A stretch of DNA of 64,000 bases from Janthinobacterium lividum (GCA_050920985.1 JBPBQY010000044.1:22123-86122), one strand, 5' to 3'. Counted from the first letter of the stretch, positions 19,593 to 25,617 are shown. A program made the numbers and translations. Notes: a model not told the origin generated them from the letters alone.

Positions 19593-20288
19593 ATGAGGCA
19601 CCATCTTCTCTCGGCCGTTCTCGCGACGATCTGCATCGGCGCGGCCTCCCCCGTCCTGGCTGACGATGCGGATTGCGGCCTGCTCTGCCGGCTCAGCGGC
19701 TACTTGTCGACGGATCATATGGCGGCGGAGCCAAGCGACGCCGGAACTGCGGCGCCGAAGGGTCATCGGGCGCATGTGGCCCACAAGGCTTCGGCCAAGG
19801 CGGCTCCCAAGGTCGCCGACAAGGGGAAAGCGCCTGCCGTCGAGGCCGCCAAGTCCGCTTCGGCCAAGTCCGCTTCGGCCAAGTCCGCTTCGGCCAAGTC
19901 CGCTTCGGCCAAGTCCGCTTCGGCCAAGTCCGCTTCGGCCAAGTCCGCTTCGGCCAAGTCCGCTTCGGCCAAGCCCGTCGTCGCGAAAGCCACCCCCGTT
20001 GCCGCGGCCCGGGCTACACCCCTGCCGGCGAAAGCCCCGGAGGCCGAACCGCACCTCGCCGCCGTGCACCCCCGGAGCGCGACGCGTCCCGCACCCCGTG
20101 CCGAGCCGCGGGTCGTCGCCGAGGCCGCTGCCTCTCCGGATGCTGTCACGCAGCCCGCCCATCACCGCACGGCTTCGACGCGGCCACCCGTTCAGGCGGC
20201 TCACGCTCAGACGGTCTCGGCGACCATTCCCGGCGCCGCCCCGGCCATGCCGATGGGCTTTCAACCCTTCAACGTCGCGTTCCACTGA
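19593..20288 (+). CDS. Secreted Ala/Lys/Pro-rich hypothetical protein with (AKSAS)8 repeat
   Basis: Signal peptide MRHHLLSAVLATICIGAASPVLA, CGLLC motif, low-complexity linker. Confidence 0.7.
   Translation: MRHHLLSAVLATICIGAASPVLADDADCGLLCRLSGYLSTDHMAAEPSDAGTAAPKGHRAHVAHKASAKAAPKVADKGKAPAVEAAKSASAKSASAKSASAKSASAKSASAKSASAKSASAKSASAKPVVAKATPVAAARATPLPAKAPEAEPHLAAVHPRSATRPAPRAEPRVVAEAAASPDAVTQPAHHRTASTRPPVQAAHAQTVSATIPGAAPAMPMGFQPFNVAFH
19848..19967 (+). repeat. Perfect tandem repeat (GCCAAGTCCGCTTCG)x8
   Basis: Eight identical 15-bp units read directly, followed by a partial unit. Confidence 0.97.
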
Positions 20289-20340: not shown

Positions 20341-21702
20341 TTACTCAGCCGGCGGCGGCATCGACCCTTGGTGGCCGGCGATGCGGTCGAGATAGGCGAA
20401 TTCCTCGCGCGTCTGCGGCTGAACCGAGGTGATCAGCCGGGCTCCGCGGCCGTAGGTCAGCCAAGCCCAGACCCAGTTCAGATAGACGGTGACGCGATTG
20501 CGCGCCCCGATCAGGAAGAACAGGTGGACGACGCTCCACAGAAGCCAGCCGATCACGCCGGTCATCTTGATCCTGCCGAGATCGGCGATGGCAGCGGAGC
20601 GCCCCACCATGGCCATCTGACCCTGGTCGTCGTAGCGGAACGGCGCCGGGAGAGGCTCGCCGATCAGGCGCGCCATCAGCACTTTCGCGACATGCGCGCC
20701 ATGCTGTTTCGCCACCGGCGCGACGCCCGGCAGGCGCTTGCCGTCGGCACCTTCCATGTAGGTGCAGTCGCCGACCGCGTAGATGTCGGGATGGCCGGGC
20801 ACGCCGCAATGCTCGTCGATGCTGACGGCATTGCCCCGGCCCTTCTCGACCCCGATCCAGTCGGCGACCGGCGTGGCGGCGGTACCGGCCGCCCAGAGTA
20901 CGTTGGCGGACAGGATGCGCTCGCCTCCCGCCACGACGCCGTCGCGGTCGACGGTCTCGACCTGAGCGCCGGTCTTCACCTCGACGCCGAGATCCTCGAG
21001 ATGCTTGCGGGCATAGTCGGAGAGATGCGGCGGGAAGCCCGCCAGCAGGCTCGGGCCACCCTCGCACAGCACGATCCGGGCCCAGCTCGGCTGGATGCGA
21101 CGGAAGTCCCGCGCCAGTGTGGAGTGGGCGAGCTCCGCGATGGCGCCCGCCATCTCGACGCCCGTGGGTCCGCCGCCCACCACCACGAAAGTGAGAAGCC
21201 GGCGGATCTCCTCCGGATCGGTACGGCTTTCGGCCCATTCGAAGGCGGCGAGCAGGCTCGAGCGCAGCGCCAGCGCCTGGTCGAGAGTCTTCAGCACGTG
21301 GGCGTGTTCGGCCCATTCGTCGTGGCCGAACCAGGAATAGACCGAGCCCGTCCCCACCACGAGGTAGTCGTAGGGCACATCGGGCACGCCCTTGACGTGG
21401 ACGCGCTTGGCCTCCGTGTCGACGCCCGTCACCTCGCCCATCAGCGTGCCGATGCGCGGCATGTCGGTGAAGAGGCCCCGCACCGGCACGGCGATGTCGG
21501 ACGGCGCCAGCGCCGCGGTCGCCACCTGGTAGAGCAGCGGCTGGAACAGGTTGTGGTTGGTCTTGTCGATCACCGTCACGAAGGCGGGAGCGAGGTTCAG
21601 CCCGCGCGCCACCGACAGCCCGCCGAACCCCGCGCCGATGACCACGACGCGGGGCAGGTTCTTCGGGTCACGCGGGTCACGAAGCTCTGGGCTGGCGGGC
21701 AT
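20341..21702 (-). CDS. ndh: Type II NADH:quinone oxidoreductase
   Basis: GAGFGG, FQPLLYQVATA, VVGGGPTGVE.AG, W.AG, AVGD, PGVAP.A.Q.G, G.MA.VGR. Confidence 0.93.
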   Translation of the reverse strand: MPASPELRDPRDPKNLPRVVVIGAGFGGLSVARGLNLAPAFVTVIDKTNHNLFQPLLYQVATAALAPSDIAVPVRGLFTDMPRIGTLMGEVTGVDTEAKRVHVKGVPDVPYDYLVVGTGSVYSWFGHDEWAEHAHVLKTLDQALALRSSLLAAFEWAESRTDPEEIRRLLTFVVVGGGPTGVEMAGAIAELAHSTLARDFRRIQPSWARIVLCEGGPSLLAGFPPHLSDYARKHLEDLGVEVKTGAQVETVDRDGVVAGGERILSANVLWAAGTAATPVADWIGVEKGRGNAVSIDEHCGVPGHPDIYAVGDCTYMEGADGKRLPGVAPVAKQHGAHVAKVLMARLIGEPLPAPFRYDDQGQMAMVGRSAAIADLGRIKMTGVIGWLLWSVVHLFFLIGARNRVTVYLNWVWAWLTYGRGARLITSVQPQTREEFAYLDRIAGHQGSMPPPAE

Positions 21703-21755: not shown

Positions 21756-22688
21756 TCAGCCGCAGACCATCTGGAACAGGGCGGTGCGCAGCGGCGGACC
21801 GTAATCGGCCTGACGGAAATAGGCCGCCTGGGGCAGCGGATCGACGTCGAGCGCGATTTCTTCGTTGCGCGGCAGCGGATGGAGGATGCGGGCCTCGGGC
21901 CGCATGCGCTTCGCCGTGTTCAGGTCGAGCACGAAGCGGTCCTTGACGGCCAGGAACATGGCCTCGTCGGTGAACCACTCCTTCTGGGGGCGCGTCATGT
22001 AGAGGATGTCGACCTTGGGAACGAGATCGCCCCAGTCGTCGGTTTCTGTATAGGGCACGCCGGCGCGGTCGAGGATGTCACGCACGTCGGCGCCGACGCG
22101 CAGCTCCGGAACCGAGACGAAGTGGACCCTGGCGCCCGGGCATTGCGCCAGGAGCGTGACCAGCGAACGCACCGTCCGGCTGTAGCGGCAGTCGCCCACG
22201 AAGGCGATCTCGACATCCGAGGTTCGGCCGAGTTCGCGCTGGATCGTGTAGAGGTCGAGCACAGCCTGCGTCGGGTGCTCGCCGGCTCCCGAGCCGGCGT
22301 TGAACACGGGCACGTCGATGCCGAGCCGCTCCAGGTTGTGCGCCACGACATGGGGCGCATTCTCCTCGTGATGGCGCAGCACCAGCGCCTTCGGCTTGTA
22401 GCCGGCGACGATACGCGTCGTATCCTCCAGGATCTCGCCCTTGGCGGCCGAGGAGAATTTGCCGGCGTCCTCCGTATAGATCACCTGGGCGCCGAGCCGG
22501 ATGGCGGCGAGCTGGAACGACATGCGGGTGCGGGTCGAGGGCTGGTAGAACAGCATCACCACGGCCTCGTCGCGGAAGATCGGCTCCGGCCTCGTATCCA
22601 GCAGCCGCGTGGTCCGTTCCGCCAGCTCGGCGAAAATATCCGGCGTGAAGATCTGGGCCTCGAGGATGGAACGTCCCTTGAGCGACAT
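21756..22688 (-). CDS. pyrB: Aspartate carbamoyltransferase catalytic subunit
   Basis: FYQPSTRTRMSF, SSAAKGE.LEDT, EHPTQAVLD, YMTR.QKE, HPLP, YF.Q. Confidence 0.93.
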   Translation of the reverse strand: MSLKGRSILEAQIFTPDIFAELAERTTRLLDTRPEPIFRDEAVVMLFYQPSTRTRMSFQLAAIRLGAQVIYTEDAGKFSSAAKGEILEDTTRIVAGYKPKALVLRHHEENAPHVVAHNLERLGIDVPVFNAGSGAGEHPTQAVLDLYTIQRELGRTSDVEIAFVGDCRYSRTVRSLVTLLAQCPGARVHFVSVPELRVGADVRDILDRAGVPYTETDDWGDLVPKVDILYMTRPQKEWFTDEAMFLAVKDRFVLDLNTAKRMRPEARILHPLPRNEEIALDVDPLPQAAYFRQADYGPPLRTALFQMVCG

Positions 22689-22790
22689 GTGCGGATCCCC
22701 GTCTCGACTGGCCGCACCCTGTGCCACGCGCGCGGCGAAAAGGACACCATCGGGGAGTGGAAAGGGCTTGCCGGAGGTTGCCGCTCTCCC

Positions 22791-23097
22791 CTCTCCCTTG
22801 TGGAGAGGGGCCGGGGGTGAGGGTCGCGACATCCTTTCCGCAAGCCGTGGATGCCGTGACGAGTCGCCTTGCTGGCTCCTCCGGACCCTCACCCCTTACC
22901 CGTCTCCACAAGGGAGAGGGAGGCGGCCGGCGTCGCGGCTATCGAGATGTGTGAATCCGGTAGCCCTTGTGGAGAGGGGCCGGGGGTGAGGGTCCGAACC
23001 ACGCCGCCGGACGATGCTGACCGCGTGGCCGAGCCCCGGCCTGCCGCGTGCGACTTAACCCCTTAGCCCTCGCCACAATCGATAGGGGAGAGGGGGG
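22791..23097. repeat. Cluster of four alternating REP-like palindromic units (BIME-like)
   Basis: CCCTTGTGGAGAGGGGCCGGGGGTGAGGGTC at about 22791-22825 and 22964-22995; inverted copy at 22884-22920; degenerate inverted copy at about 23059-23097. Confidence 0.8.
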
Positions 23098-23141
23098 AGC
23101 GGCAAGCGACGGCAATGGCGCGGGACGTTCGACTCGATCGA

Positions 23142-23870
23142 CTACTTCACCCGCATCCCGGCTGCGAGGCGTGGCCAATCCTTCTTGGGCGACCAGACGA
23201 CGTTGAGATCCGCGATGTCCCCGGCGACCGCGGGATCGTCCTGGGCGAACTGCCCAAACGGCTTGCGCACCACCGCCACGACGGGCAGCACCTGCCCGGG
23301 CCGCGGCTCGTAGGTCTCGCCGACGCTCTCCGAGCGGTTGAGGAAACACAGGATGCCGGCCACAGCGGCGCCGTAGCTCTCGATCTGCGCCACCAGCTTG
23401 GCGGTCGTCGAGAAGTTGTTGCAGACGTCCTCGACGATGAACCAGCTCTGACCGGCCTCCGGCTCGTGGCGCGAAAACACCATCTCTGACGCCTCCCGCG
23501 ATGTCGCCGAGGCCGCGACCGTGATCTTCTTCTCGGGGTAGATGTAACTTTTGCCGGCATCGAGCGCGAGCTGATAGGCGAAGGCCTTGCCGCCTTCGGG
23601 CGCCCCGATGAAGCCCGTCGCACTCGTCATGTCGATGCCGCGCGCCTTGGCCAGCCCTGCCAGTCGTCGCGAGAACACCTGAAGCAGCGCGGGCCGGCTC
23701 TCGGCCCGGGCGAAGTTGACATAGACCTCGCCGACATACTGCCGGCCCTGCGGATCACGGCCCGCATAGCCGACGAGAGGACCCATGCGGCGGCCCGAGG
23801 CGTCGCGCGGCGCCTCGTAGAAGGCGCCGGCCTGGCGCATGAGGTCGAGGGGGTCGGTGGTGTCCGTCAT
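23142..23870 (-). CDS. pyrE: Orotate phosphoribosyltransferase-like type I PRTase (PyrE-like)
   Basis: IGAPEGG, PRPP-loop variant FIVEDVCNNFSTT; ATGA-coupled to pyrF. Confidence 0.75.
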   Translation of the reverse strand: MTDTTDPLDLMRQAGAFYEAPRDASGRRMGPLVGYAGRDPQGRQYVGEVYVNFARAESRPALLQVFSRRLAGLAKARGIDMTSATGFIGAPEGGKAFAYQLALDAGKSYIYPEKKITVAASATSREASEMVFSRHEPEAGQSWFIVEDVCNNFSTTAKLVAQIESYGAAVAGILCFLNRSESVGETYEPRPGQVLPVVAVVRKPFGQFAQDDPAVAGDIADLNVVWSPKKDWPRLAAGMRVK

Positions 23871-24715
23871 CGATTGAAGCTTCTGATCTCGCCGGTGAGG
23901 CGTTGGGTCTCGGCGCGGGCCGCCGCGGCGAAGTCGGTGCCCGCCGACGCGTAGATGATGCCGCGCGACGAGTTGATGATCATGCCGCGACCGCGCGCGT
24001 CGCGTCCGGCCTCCACGGTCAGACGGACGTCGCCGCCCTGTGCGCCCACGCCGGGGATGAGGATCGGCATGTCGCCGACGATGGCGCGAACGGCCGCGAG
24101 CTCTTCCGGATAGGTGGCGCCGACCACGACCGCGCAATTGCCGTTGCCATTCCAATGATCGGCGACGCGCCGCGCCACGACCCGGTAGAGCGGCTCGCCG
24201 CCGACCTGCAGGTCCTGGAACTCGCCGCCGCCGGGATTCGAGGTGCGAACCAGGACGATGATGCCCCGCTCCGTTCTGGCGAGGAACGGCGCCAGCGACT
24301 CTCTGCCGAGATAGGGGTGGACGGTGATCGAATCGGCATCGAGCCGGTCGAAGGCGTCCTCGACATAGCCGGCATTGGTCGAGCCGATGTCGCCGCGCTT
24401 GGCGTCGTAGATTACCGGCACATCGGGCGCCGCAATCCGGATATGGCGCATGACGTCGCCGAGCGCCGCGATGCCGGGCGCGCCGAACCGCTCGAAGAAG
24501 GCCGCATTTGGCTTGAACGCACAGGCGAGATCCGCCGTCGCGTCGACGACGGCCGTGCAGAAGGCCAGCACCGCCCGGGCACGGGCCTCGTCGGAAGGGT
24601 TCGTTCCTGCGGCGGCGCGAATCGGCCCCGGCAGCTTCGACCAATCAGGGTCGAGCCCCACGCAGACGAAGAGGCCCTTGTCCCACCGCGCGTCGAGCCG
24701 TGCGCGAAAGCTCAT
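23867..24715 (-). CDS. pyrF: Orotidine-5'-phosphate decarboxylase, type 2
   Basis: VCVGLDP, FKPN.AFF, DAKRGDIGSTN, VHPYLG, RTSNPG, VVGATYP, LIPGVGAQGG, NSSRGIIYA. Confidence 0.95.
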   Translation of the reverse strand: MSFRARLDARWDKGLFVCVGLDPDWSKLPGPIRAAAGTNPSDEARARAVLAFCTAVVDATADLACAFKPNAAFFERFGAPGIAALGDVMRHIRIAAPDVPVIYDAKRGDIGSTNAGYVEDAFDRLDADSITVHPYLGRESLAPFLARTERGIIVLVRTSNPGGGEFQDLQVGGEPLYRVVARRVADHWNGNGNCAVVVGATYPEELAAVRAIVGDMPILIPGVGAQGGDVRLTVEAGRDARGRGMIINSSRGIIYASAGTDFAAAARAETQRLTGEIRSFNR

Positions 24716-25617
24716 GCCGCCACCTGCGTCGTCGAGGTCTCGCCGGCGCGGCGCGCGAGGTCGCGCTTGACGATCCGGGTCGGCAGCCAGGGCGCACGGA
24801 AGTGGATGGCGCCGTAGGAGATGGCGCGCGCGCCGAACGCCCGGACGCGGTCGAGATCGTCGAAGCCCATGATGCTCGGCGCGATCACGGGTAGCGACCC
24901 GTCGGCGGCGATCTCGCGGACAGCGCGCCAGTTCAGCGCCTGCGCGGGCCGGCCCGACACACCGCCGCCGCCGCCGCCGACGCGCTGCTCTAGCCGCCAC
25001 AGGGGGCTGCGACCCTCCGGATAGATCTGCTCCCAGGGGACGCTGTTCAGCGATATGGCTTCGGCCAAACCCTCGAGGCCGCGTGCGATGCCGCGATAAT
25101 CCTGGCTCGTCGAGACTTTGACGACGACGGGATGGCGCGACACGCGCTTCACCGCCTCGACGCCTTGAACCACTTGGCCTGCATTGCCGAGGGCATGGCC
25201 CGTGTTGGGGCAGGATGGGTTCACCTCCAGGGCCACCAGCGGCAGGTCGTTCAACCGCGCCGCCATGTCGGCGAGTTCGTCGTCGTCGCCGAAGATCGAC
25301 ACCGCGGTCTTGACCCGGGCGTAGTCGAGCCGCGGCGCGACATCGCGCAGCCACCGGTCGAAGCCCGGATTGGTCAGCCCCACCTTGTTGACGGAGCCGC
25401 CCGGCACGAGCCGGACGCAGGTCCAGGGCTTGTAGAGCTTCAGATTTCCCTCGCGCGGATGGCGCGTCAGCGTCTTCAGCACGACCGTAAACAGGTCCGG
25501 CCGGATAACGCCCGACGCCACCATGGGGCGCTGCCAGGGCCAGCCACGGCCGTCGAAGGCGAGCGACCCGCTCGACACGACATGGTCGAGCGCGTGGCCG
25601 TTGGACAATCTGATCAT
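24712..25617 (-). CDS. pyrD: Dihydroorotate dehydrogenase, class 1-like
   Basis: N.VGLTNPG, active-site E.N.SCPN (Cys), VVVK.S, NS, GGVSG; no membrane/quinone N-terminal domain. Confidence 0.85.
   Translation of the reverse strand: MIRLSNGHALDHVVSSGSLAFDGRGWPWQRPMVASGVIRPDLFTVVLKTLTRHPREGNLKLYKPWTCVRLVPGGSVNKVGLTNPGFDRWLRDVAPRLDYARVKTAVSIFGDDDELADMAARLNDLPLVALEVNPSCPNTGHALGNAGQVVQGVEAVKRVSRHPVVVKVSTSQDYRGIARGLEGLAEAISLNSVPWEQIYPEGRSPLWRLEQRVGGGGGGVSGRPAQALNWRAVREIAADGSLPVIAPSIMGFDDLDRVRAFGARAISYGAIHFRAPWLPTRIVKRDLARRAGETSTTQVAA

Follow-up and report, generated by a model that had tools for sequence, protein, structure and literature searches.

Probable xenologous displacement of the core pyrimidine pathway by a Patescibacteria-related operon in a lichen-associated alphaproteobacterium

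The DNA stretch analysed here, a window of 64,000 nucleotides filed under Janthinobacterium lividum (GCA_050920985.1, JBPBQY010000044.1:22123-86122), carries a four-gene pyrimidine operon, pyrD-pyrF-pyrE-pyrB, at positions 21,756-25,617. The genome belongs to Lichenibacterium/Lichenihabitans (Hyphomicrobiales), a group of lichen-associated alphaproteobacteria. Our results make it very probable that this operon is the outcome of a xenologous displacement, in which the core pyrimidine pathway was replaced by a Patescibacteria-related operon that is now the sole set. As in other xenologous displacements of housekeeping genes, the essential function was kept while the gene lineage was swapped, and the two sets are found either/or among close relatives; this case differs from the usual ones in that four to five consecutive core-pathway steps would have been swapped at once as an operon, and in that its nearest relatives lie in Patescibacteria. 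These are tiny-celled bacteria, usually viewed as recipients with reduced biosynthesis. In the scenario that we favour, a Patescibacteria-related donor would have passed an operon of five genes (pyrD-pyrC-pyrF-pyrE-pyrB) horizontally to the ancestor of the Lichenibacterium clade, after which the class-2 quinone-linked pyrD, the type-1 pyrF, the Thermus-type pyrE, and the pyrB-pyrC' pair would have been lost. The operon pyrC would have been deleted later in the sublineage of the window, and dihydroorotase (DHOase) would now be supplied by a gene of the PRK09060 type that lies on a different contig, while CarA and CarB are encoded elsewhere.

The assembly to which the window belongs (5.70 Mb, 98.97% complete) was searched family by family, with profiles that each gave matches in 14 of 14 control genomes, except for PF10418 (9 of 14). 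The PyrD-like protein of the operon and PreA, a dihydropyrimidine dehydrogenase subunit, were the only matches to PF01180, and the operon pyrF was the sole match to PF00215. Only the operon pyrB and ArgF (ornithine carbamoyltransferase) matched PF02729, and TIGR01367 recovered only Apt, ComF, Prs (the synthetase of phosphoribosyl pyrophosphate, PRPP), PurF, and the PyrE-like protein of the operon. No class-2 pyrD, type-1 pyrF, canonical pyrE, or second pyrB was detected in these profile searches of the genome. CarA, CarB, and a DHOase were encoded on other contigs, the latter being of the PRK09060 type (C24:8129-9235; NF006559, 693 versus 482 bits). The operon holds the genome's only genes for steps 2, 4, 5, and 6 of uridine monophosphate (UMP) synthesis, i.e., aspartate carbamoyltransferase (ATCase), dihydroorotate dehydrogenase (DHODH), orotate phosphoribosyltransferase (OPRTase), and orotidine monophosphate (OMP) decarboxylase. 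The chemistry is that of the textbook pathway, and the pathway is a mosaic, with PyrB, PyrD, PyrE, and PyrF coming from the operon and CarAB and PyrC from elsewhere in the genome.

Close relatives of the PyrD-like protein, with 72-95% identity, were found in Lichenibacterium ramalinae, L. minor, Lichenibacterium sp., Lichenihabitans sp., and a Hyphomicrobiales bacterium. Lichenibacterium, Lichenifustis, and Lichenihabitans are joined by GTDB in one genus (bioRxiv 10.1101/2025.08.19.671110). Among 301 genomes sampled across the order, this PyrD type was present in the window's own genome alone. At a finer scale (DISPLACEMENT within one genus), three independent searches agreed in finding only the new PyrD/PyrF/PyrB in 17 of 25 genomes and only the canonical ones in the other 8. 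The 17 new-set genomes showed a PyrD scoring about 37-66 bits on PF01180 over profile positions of about 39-285, a type-2 PyrF, and a PyrB 76-100% identical to that of the window, the genes of one of them (G323) being fragmented at contig ends. The canonical-only genomes (G301, G308, G310, G313, G315, G319, G320, and G324) encoded a type-1 PyrF, which scored 119-201 bits and was incomplete in G301, together with a PyrB at 34-42% identity to the window's; full-length class-2 PyrD (246-266 bits) was found in six of them, with a split copy in G310 and a fragment in G308, both incomplete assemblies.

What the initial annotation had taken as the normal alphaproteobacterial state could be read directly in the congener G319, which carries a class-2 PyrD with its N-terminal domain and Ser-base loop (NVSSPNTPGLR), a type-1 PyrF, and, between topA and plsY-dprA, a PyrB with the HPGP motif beside a pyrC-like gene (pyrC'). 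The usual alphaproteobacterial ATCase is of class A, in which PyrB, with its HPGP motif, is complexed with the DHOase-like PyrC'; the PyrB of the operon, in contrast, has no adjacent pyrC and shows the motif HPLP. The canonical genes, at scattered loci, cover the same pathway steps but with another PyrD class, another PyrF subfamily, and a PyrB that is only 32-37% identical. The topA-plsY slot of the window's own genome (C14:122390-123791, 1.4 kb) gave no remnant of pyrB or pyrC' even at E ≤ 10 and was occupied by an acyltransferase-3-like open reading frame (ORF). A TopA tree was built by careful search on 822 columns from 14 new-set and 6 canonical genomes, with two other genera as the outgroup, and it placed all 14 new-set genomes in one clade (99/97) with the 6 canonical ones outside. 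As the new-set genomes form one TopA clade, the simplest history is that the new set was gained once and the old one then lost, and a single displacement fits this topology. Extra DHO_dh fragments in one congener (G322) were considered as possible relics of a class-2 pyrD, but they turned out to be a frameshifted PreA. The gene, at G322:C6:126500-129500 (locus L075), is split by a frameshift and is either a pseudogene or the product of an assembly error.

Given the absence of a canonical set from the genome and the either/or pattern across the genus, we take the operon to be the sole route. It had initially been proposed that the operon provides an additional, respiration-independent route, or acts on a modified pyrimidine, beside a canonical set. 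The divergence of the enzymes and the soluble, quinone-independent character predicted for the DHODH would be in keeping with either role. However, a genome that is 99% complete lacks canonical pyrD, pyrF, pyrE, and pyrB beside the operon, the two sets are mutually exclusive across all 25 congeners, and the orotate-binding residues are invariant, so both proposals were abandoned as highly improbable.

The operon of the window is a reduced version of an older, five-gene form. The order pyrD-pyrC-pyrF-pyrE-pyrB was found in L. minor, in several metagenome-assembled genomes of Lichenihabitans, and on contigs of 2.66 Mb, 5.71 Mb, and JGI origin, its pyrC encoding a "dimer"-type enzyme of 361 amino acids (TIGR00856, 282 bits) that is missing from the window, L. 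ramalinae, and four other genomes. The two DHOases are complementary across the genus. The PRK09060-type enzyme (at least 82% identity) was present in the new-set genomes with a pyrC-less operon (G000, G304, G306, G309, and G318), as well as in G323, whose operon was too fragmented to score, and ten genomes whose operon has all five genes lacked it; both DHOases were carried by L. minor (G316). The PRK09060-type enzyme of the window's genome was 82-87% identical to those of the canonical-set genomes G301, G313, and G315, and a version at 52-55% was found in G308, G319, and G320. Since the former identity exceeds that of TopA between the same genomes (77-78%), there is a hint that this gene was transferred within the family, which may have allowed the loss of the operon pyrC.

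Other signs concern the age of the acquisition. The spacer between pyrE and pyrB contained several direct and inverted copies of a GC-rich palindromic element with the 31-mer core CCCTTGTGGAGAGGGGCCGGGGGTGAGGGTC, of which 76 copies with at most 3 mismatches were counted genome-wide, and which looks like a family of repetitive extragenic palindromic (REP) sequences or miniature inverted-repeat transposable elements; in relatives, the same spacer measured 0-283 bp. The GC content of the operon was 0.684, against 0.672 in the rest of the window and 0.36-0.51 in the Patescibacteria loci, and the operon was common to the whole clade at 63-95% identity. Host-like GC, host REP-like elements in the spacer, and clade-wide sharing point to an old transfer and a long residence in the host lineage, as the initial annotation had supposed from the GC content.

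As for the source, a likeness of the PyrD N terminus and of the PyrE type to proteins of Patescibacteria, also known as the Candidate Phyla Radiation (CPR), had been noted in the first description of the operon; homologue searches proved it correct, and it fits PyrB too. The PyrD-like protein gave 1071 matches, in which the Lichenihabitans group (at least 67% identity) was followed by sequences at 58-67%. In the best 120 of these matches, every named relative outside Lichenihabitans was a Patescibacterium (Paceibacterota, Parcubacteria, Taylorbacteria, Vogelbacteria, Staskawiczbacteria, and Minisyncoccia). Likewise, the named relatives of the PyrE-like protein outside Lichenihabitans, at 48-61% identity, were all Patescibacteria in the best 120 of 692 matches. 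The Lichenihabitans clade was monophyletic in the PyrD trees (98-100). PyrB was about 50% identical to its Patescibacteria relatives. In its tree, for which the canonical PyrB of a congener, with a very long branch, served as the root, the Lichenihabitans sequences formed a clade (100) that was sister (Shimodaira-Hasegawa-like approximate likelihood ratio test, 99) to a small group containing a Patescibacteria sequence, this pair lying inside a larger group with Paceibacterota and Kaiserbacteria, and Dormibacterota and Thermomicrobiales further out. Parts of the gene cluster were also found in Patescibacteria: one contig (L023) grouped pyrD-like, pyrC, pyrE-like, and a type-1 pyrF, another (L027) pyrD-like, pyrC, and a fused phosphoribosyltransferase (PRTase)-pyrF gene, and a Parcubacteria contig (L070) had a type-2 pyrF beside pyrE-like. 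On the Patescibacteria contigs L027 and L028 (1-6700), the pyrD-like/pyrC/pyrF cluster directly adjoined a PIN gene and two genes for serine recombinases (Resolvase/Recombinase domains); a cluster so placed may be mobile in that genome.

Regarding the function of the PyrD-like protein, the known DHODHs differ in their partners and acceptors. Class 1A enzymes are homodimers with fumarate as the electron acceptor, class 1B enzymes are heterotetramers of PyrD and PyrK, the latter being an FAD/2Fe-2S subunit, and class 2 enzymes are quinone-using and membrane-associated, with an N-terminal helical domain and a Ser base. The PyrD-like protein matched Pfam DHO_dh (PF01180) with 61 bits (gathering score, 27) over residues 44-284, and the class-2 model NF003652 with 26 versus 267 bits. 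It begins 40 residues before the barrel, has no class-2 N-terminal domain, and carries Cys where class 2 has Ser, within the motif NPSCPNTGH (predicted catalytic Cys136), as had been described for its SCPN signature. Residues K48, N77, N133, C136, N138, K167, and N191 were invariant in 45 members of the family and aligned with the catalytic and flavin mononucleotide (FMN)/orotate-binding motifs of DHODB from Lactococcus lactis. Other invariants were specific to the family (tryptophans W28, W65, W89, W195, and W230, together with Q172 and Q226), which also has a conserved, distinctive 40-residue N terminus, reading MIRLSNGH..SGSLAFDGRGWPW in the protein of the window. An AlphaFold2 model (mean predicted local distance difference test, pLDDT, 88.8) adopted a class-1 DHODH barrel, with the PyrD subunit of L. 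lactis DHODB as the best Foldseek match (E 4e-17, template modelling (TM) score 0.74) and class-1A DHODHs as the second-best structural group (TM about 0.65).

The PyrD of L. lactis DHODB (PDB 1EP1/5UE9) was also the closest solved structure by sequence (E 7e-15), and the TIM-barrel fold, the SCPN Cys, and the Lys/Asn ligands of FMN and orotate are common to both proteins. They differ in that the PyrD-like protein is only about 22% identical to it, has no PyrK, shows APSIM in place of GmGGV, and has its own invariants and N terminus. Class 1A enzymes (L. lactis DHODA, trypanosomatid DHODH) resemble it in being stand-alone and soluble, in having a Cys as the base, and in lacking a dedicated subunit for electron transfer, although the sequence likeness is weaker than to class 1B (E 1e-5 to 1e-7, with the N-terminal half alone aligning). 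No match to PF10418, the profile used for PyrK, was obtained in the whole genome at E ≤ 0.1, which extends to genome scale the earlier statement that the operon lacks pyrK, and no PyrK gene adjoined pyrD-like in the Lichenibacterium or Patescibacteria loci examined. In the absence of PyrK anywhere in the genome, the PyrD-like protein would have to act alone. Its modelled fold, putative catalytic residues, and gene context support a DHODH role, and we infer that it would oxidise dihydroorotate with FMN and Cys136 as the base, without PyrK, and pass the electrons to a soluble acceptor, perhaps fumarate, as in class 1A, or O2 or another compound.

The PyrE-like protein was modelled (pLDDT 94.9) as a type-I PRTase, and its top Foldseek matches were all OPRTases (4paw, 2yzk, 4rv4, 2ps1, and 2wns; E 1e-10 to 3e-8), the OPRT domain of human UMPS (2wns) being the best PDB match of its profile as well. 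It contains a PRPP-loop-like segment, IVEDVCNNFSTT. It shares the type-I PRTase fold with OPRTases such as those of Helicobacter pylori (HP1257, 4PAW), Aeropyrum pernix (2YZK), and humans (UMPS, 2WNS), but at only 12-20% identity, and it exceeds them in length by about 50 residues, being extended at both termini. NCBI names the members of this family "hypothetical protein", as it does many of the Patescibacteria relatives of the PyrD-like protein. Because its gene neighbours pyrF within a pyr operon and the genome contains no other candidate, the protein is probably an OPRTase that would make OMP from orotate and PRPP, a role that its modelled fold also supports. Many type-2 PyrF relatives, in Patescibacteria and in other bacteria, were found fused to a PRTase domain, and these UMP-synthase-like fusions (470-590 amino acids, e.g., P0368 and P0516) were considered as Rosetta-stone evidence for the PyrE-like protein; however, they add no support to it, because the fused domain is of the canonical PyrE type.

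The other two enzymes are, by sequence, ordinary members of their own families. PyrF passed the model for OMP decarboxylase subfamily 2 (TIGR02127, 245 versus 110.6 bits), in agreement with its first assignment to type 2, with the decarboxylase domain of Leishmania (trypanosomatid) UMP synthase as the closest solved relative. PyrB passed TIGR00670 (260 versus 237 bits), was closest among solved structures to plant PYRB, and contained the motifs QPSTRTR, EHPTQAV, ILHPLPRNEE, and LYMTRPQKEW, two of which include the HPLP and YMTR.QKE signatures noted at the outset.

A number of observations tell against the displacement scenario or the functions that it assumes. The PyrE-like protein scored under all family cut-offs (PF00156, 16.2 versus 26.3; TIGR00336, 16.5 versus 106.8; TIGR01367, 28.8 versus 150), the PyrD-like protein scored below every curated NCBIfam DHODH equivalog cut-off (NF005574, 92 versus 269; TIGR01037, 69 versus 270; NF041011, 67 versus 330), and the class-1 FMN-phosphate motif GxGG(I/V) is APSIM in the latter. 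In addition, the species tree was that of a single marker, TopA, and canonical pyrE was looked for in the window's own genome only. Concerning the origin, the root of the PyrD tree fell on a CPR branch when L. lactis DHODB and PreA were taken as the outgroup, with the Lichenihabitans clade nested weakly in CPR (93/58). The PyrF tree (153 sequences) was star-like, without a supported sister group, so that no PyrF donor could be assigned, and the nearest PyrF relatives (55-59% identity) included a fusion protein from Patescibacteria as well as an actinobacterium-like contig. Finally, the operon PyrC was only 28-29% identical to sampled Patescibacteria pyrC.

Patescibacteria are generally salvage-dependent, and this, together with the sub-threshold scores of both proteins, would suit an alternative in which the PyrD-like and PyrE-like proteins are not a DHODH and an OPRTase but, for instance, a dihydropyrimidine-type reductase and a salvage PRTase, in an organism that needs outside pyrimidines. 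We consider this very unlikely, as both genes occur in operons with pyrB, pyrC, and pyrF in two phyla, ATCase, DHOase, and OMP decarboxylase would be pointless without the steps between them, and the predicted folds and active-site residues match those of DHODH and OPRTase.

The initial claim of an origin in a distant lineage stands, with Patescibacteria as the nearest relatives outside the clade for the PyrD-like protein, the PyrE-like protein, and PyrB, and without an assignable donor for PyrF. The operon could also have arisen from several donors, or from an unsampled third lineage from which Patescibacteria too received these genes, Patescibacteria being then the best-sampled relatives and not the donor. 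This would account for the uneven identity to CPR proteins (PyrD, 60-67%; PyrE, 48-61%; PyrB, about 50%; PyrF, 40-55%; PyrC, 28-29%), for a five-gene order seen on no sampled CPR contig, for the unsupported position of PyrF, whose nearest relatives include an actinobacterium-like contig, and for the long stem branch of PyrB (1.05). Nevertheless, it seems unlikely in view of the exclusively Patescibacteria identity of the named relatives of the PyrD-like and PyrE-like proteins in their best 120 matches, the support for the PyrB sister group with its Patescibacteria sequence, and the pairing of type-2 pyrF with pyrE-like on the Parcubacteria contig. We therefore read the donor as a relative of Patescibacteria that itself lies outside the sampled lineages, and the ancestry of the operon may be mixed.

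With respect to direction, the unrooted PyrD and PyrE trees show just two sides of one branch, as would also be seen had the genes passed from the Lichenibacterium lineage to Patescibacteria. Because the support for the PyrD root is weak, the direction is deduced mainly from taxonomic distribution. The families are broad and diverse in Patescibacteria (the 1071 and 692 matches, with named ones from several CPR groups), their occurrence in other bacteria was confined to a single sub-clade within one GTDB genus, and the sister genomes and 300 sampled order-mates carry canonical genes; the outgroup root among CPR sequences points weakly the same way. Reverse transfer is, on these grounds, extremely improbable, and we retain the acquisition of the operon by the Lichenibacterium clade.

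Literature searches on Patescibacteria DHODH/OPRTase, on Lichenihabitans pyrimidine, and on Lichenibacterium found no paper on this operon, nor was any report found, in the literature searched, of free-living Proteobacteria receiving genes from Patescibacteria-like donors, a kind of transfer that appears to be rarely documented. New here are two enzyme families missed by curated models, a stand-alone putative DHODH with a predicted 1B-like barrel and no PyrK, and a probable four-to-five-gene displacement, in which genes with Patescibacteria relatives took over an essential pathway of an alphaproteobacterial clade. The genus offers a clean and datable example in which essential housekeeping genes gave way to a complete operon for a core pathway, with a surviving intermediate in L. 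minor and its two DHOases. It also offers a functional anchor for two large Patescibacteria families now labelled "hypothetical" by NCBI, and if their members are true DHODHs and OPRTases, many Patescibacteria would have more de novo pyrimidine capacity than their annotation suggests. Moreover, the predicted DHODH of an aerobe would have moved from the quinone pool to a soluble acceptor, which is directly testable in cultured strains. As a tentative extension, perhaps the PyrD-like protein represents a further functional class of DHODH (1B-like barrel, alone, without PyrK, and with another acceptor) and the PyrE-like protein a new OPRTase family, both native to Patescibacteria, and their transfer into an aerobic lichen-associated alphaproteobacterium, replacing a respiration-linked pathway, might record a past episymbiont-host association between Patescibacteria and the ancestors of Lichenibacterium.

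The layout of the locus (Table 1) agreed with its first description, all four ORFs lying on the minus strand, with pyrB set off from pyrE by the spacer and ATGA overlaps coupling pyrD to pyrF (24712-24715) and pyrF to pyrE (23867-23870). No pyrC, carAB, or pyrK was present within the operon, also as described.

Table 1. Features of the pyrimidine operon and its downstream neighbour in the window.
Feature	Position	Strand	Basis or remark
pyrD-like, predicted soluble class-1-type dihydroorotate dehydrogenase, 301 aa (P0001)	24712-25617	-	Cys136 base; no membrane domain; PF01180 match
pyrF, type-2 OMP decarboxylase, 282 aa (P0002)	23867-24715	-	TIGR02127
pyrE-like, putative orotate PRTase (a divergent phosphoribosyltransferase of type I), 242 aa (P0003)	23142-23870	-	fold and operon context
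pyrE-pyrB spacer, 453 bp, invaded by GC-rich palindromic REP-like elements	22689-23141	.	repeat searches
pyrB, catalytic chain of aspartate carbamoyltransferase, without pyrI or an adjacent pyrC, 310 aa (P0004)	21756-22688	-	TIGR00670
ndh, type-II NADH dehydrogenase	20341-21702	-	begins 54 bp downstream of the pyrB stop

The order ada-lysE-operon-ndh2 was constant across the crown clade, and because of this conserved adjacency, co-transcription of pyrB and ndh is possible. Just past ndh, an ORF on the plus strand (window 19593-20288) showed the pentapeptide SAKSA repeated over a long stretch (KSASAKSASAKSA...), corresponding either to a tandem-repeat low-complexity protein or to a translation artefact of a DNA repeat.

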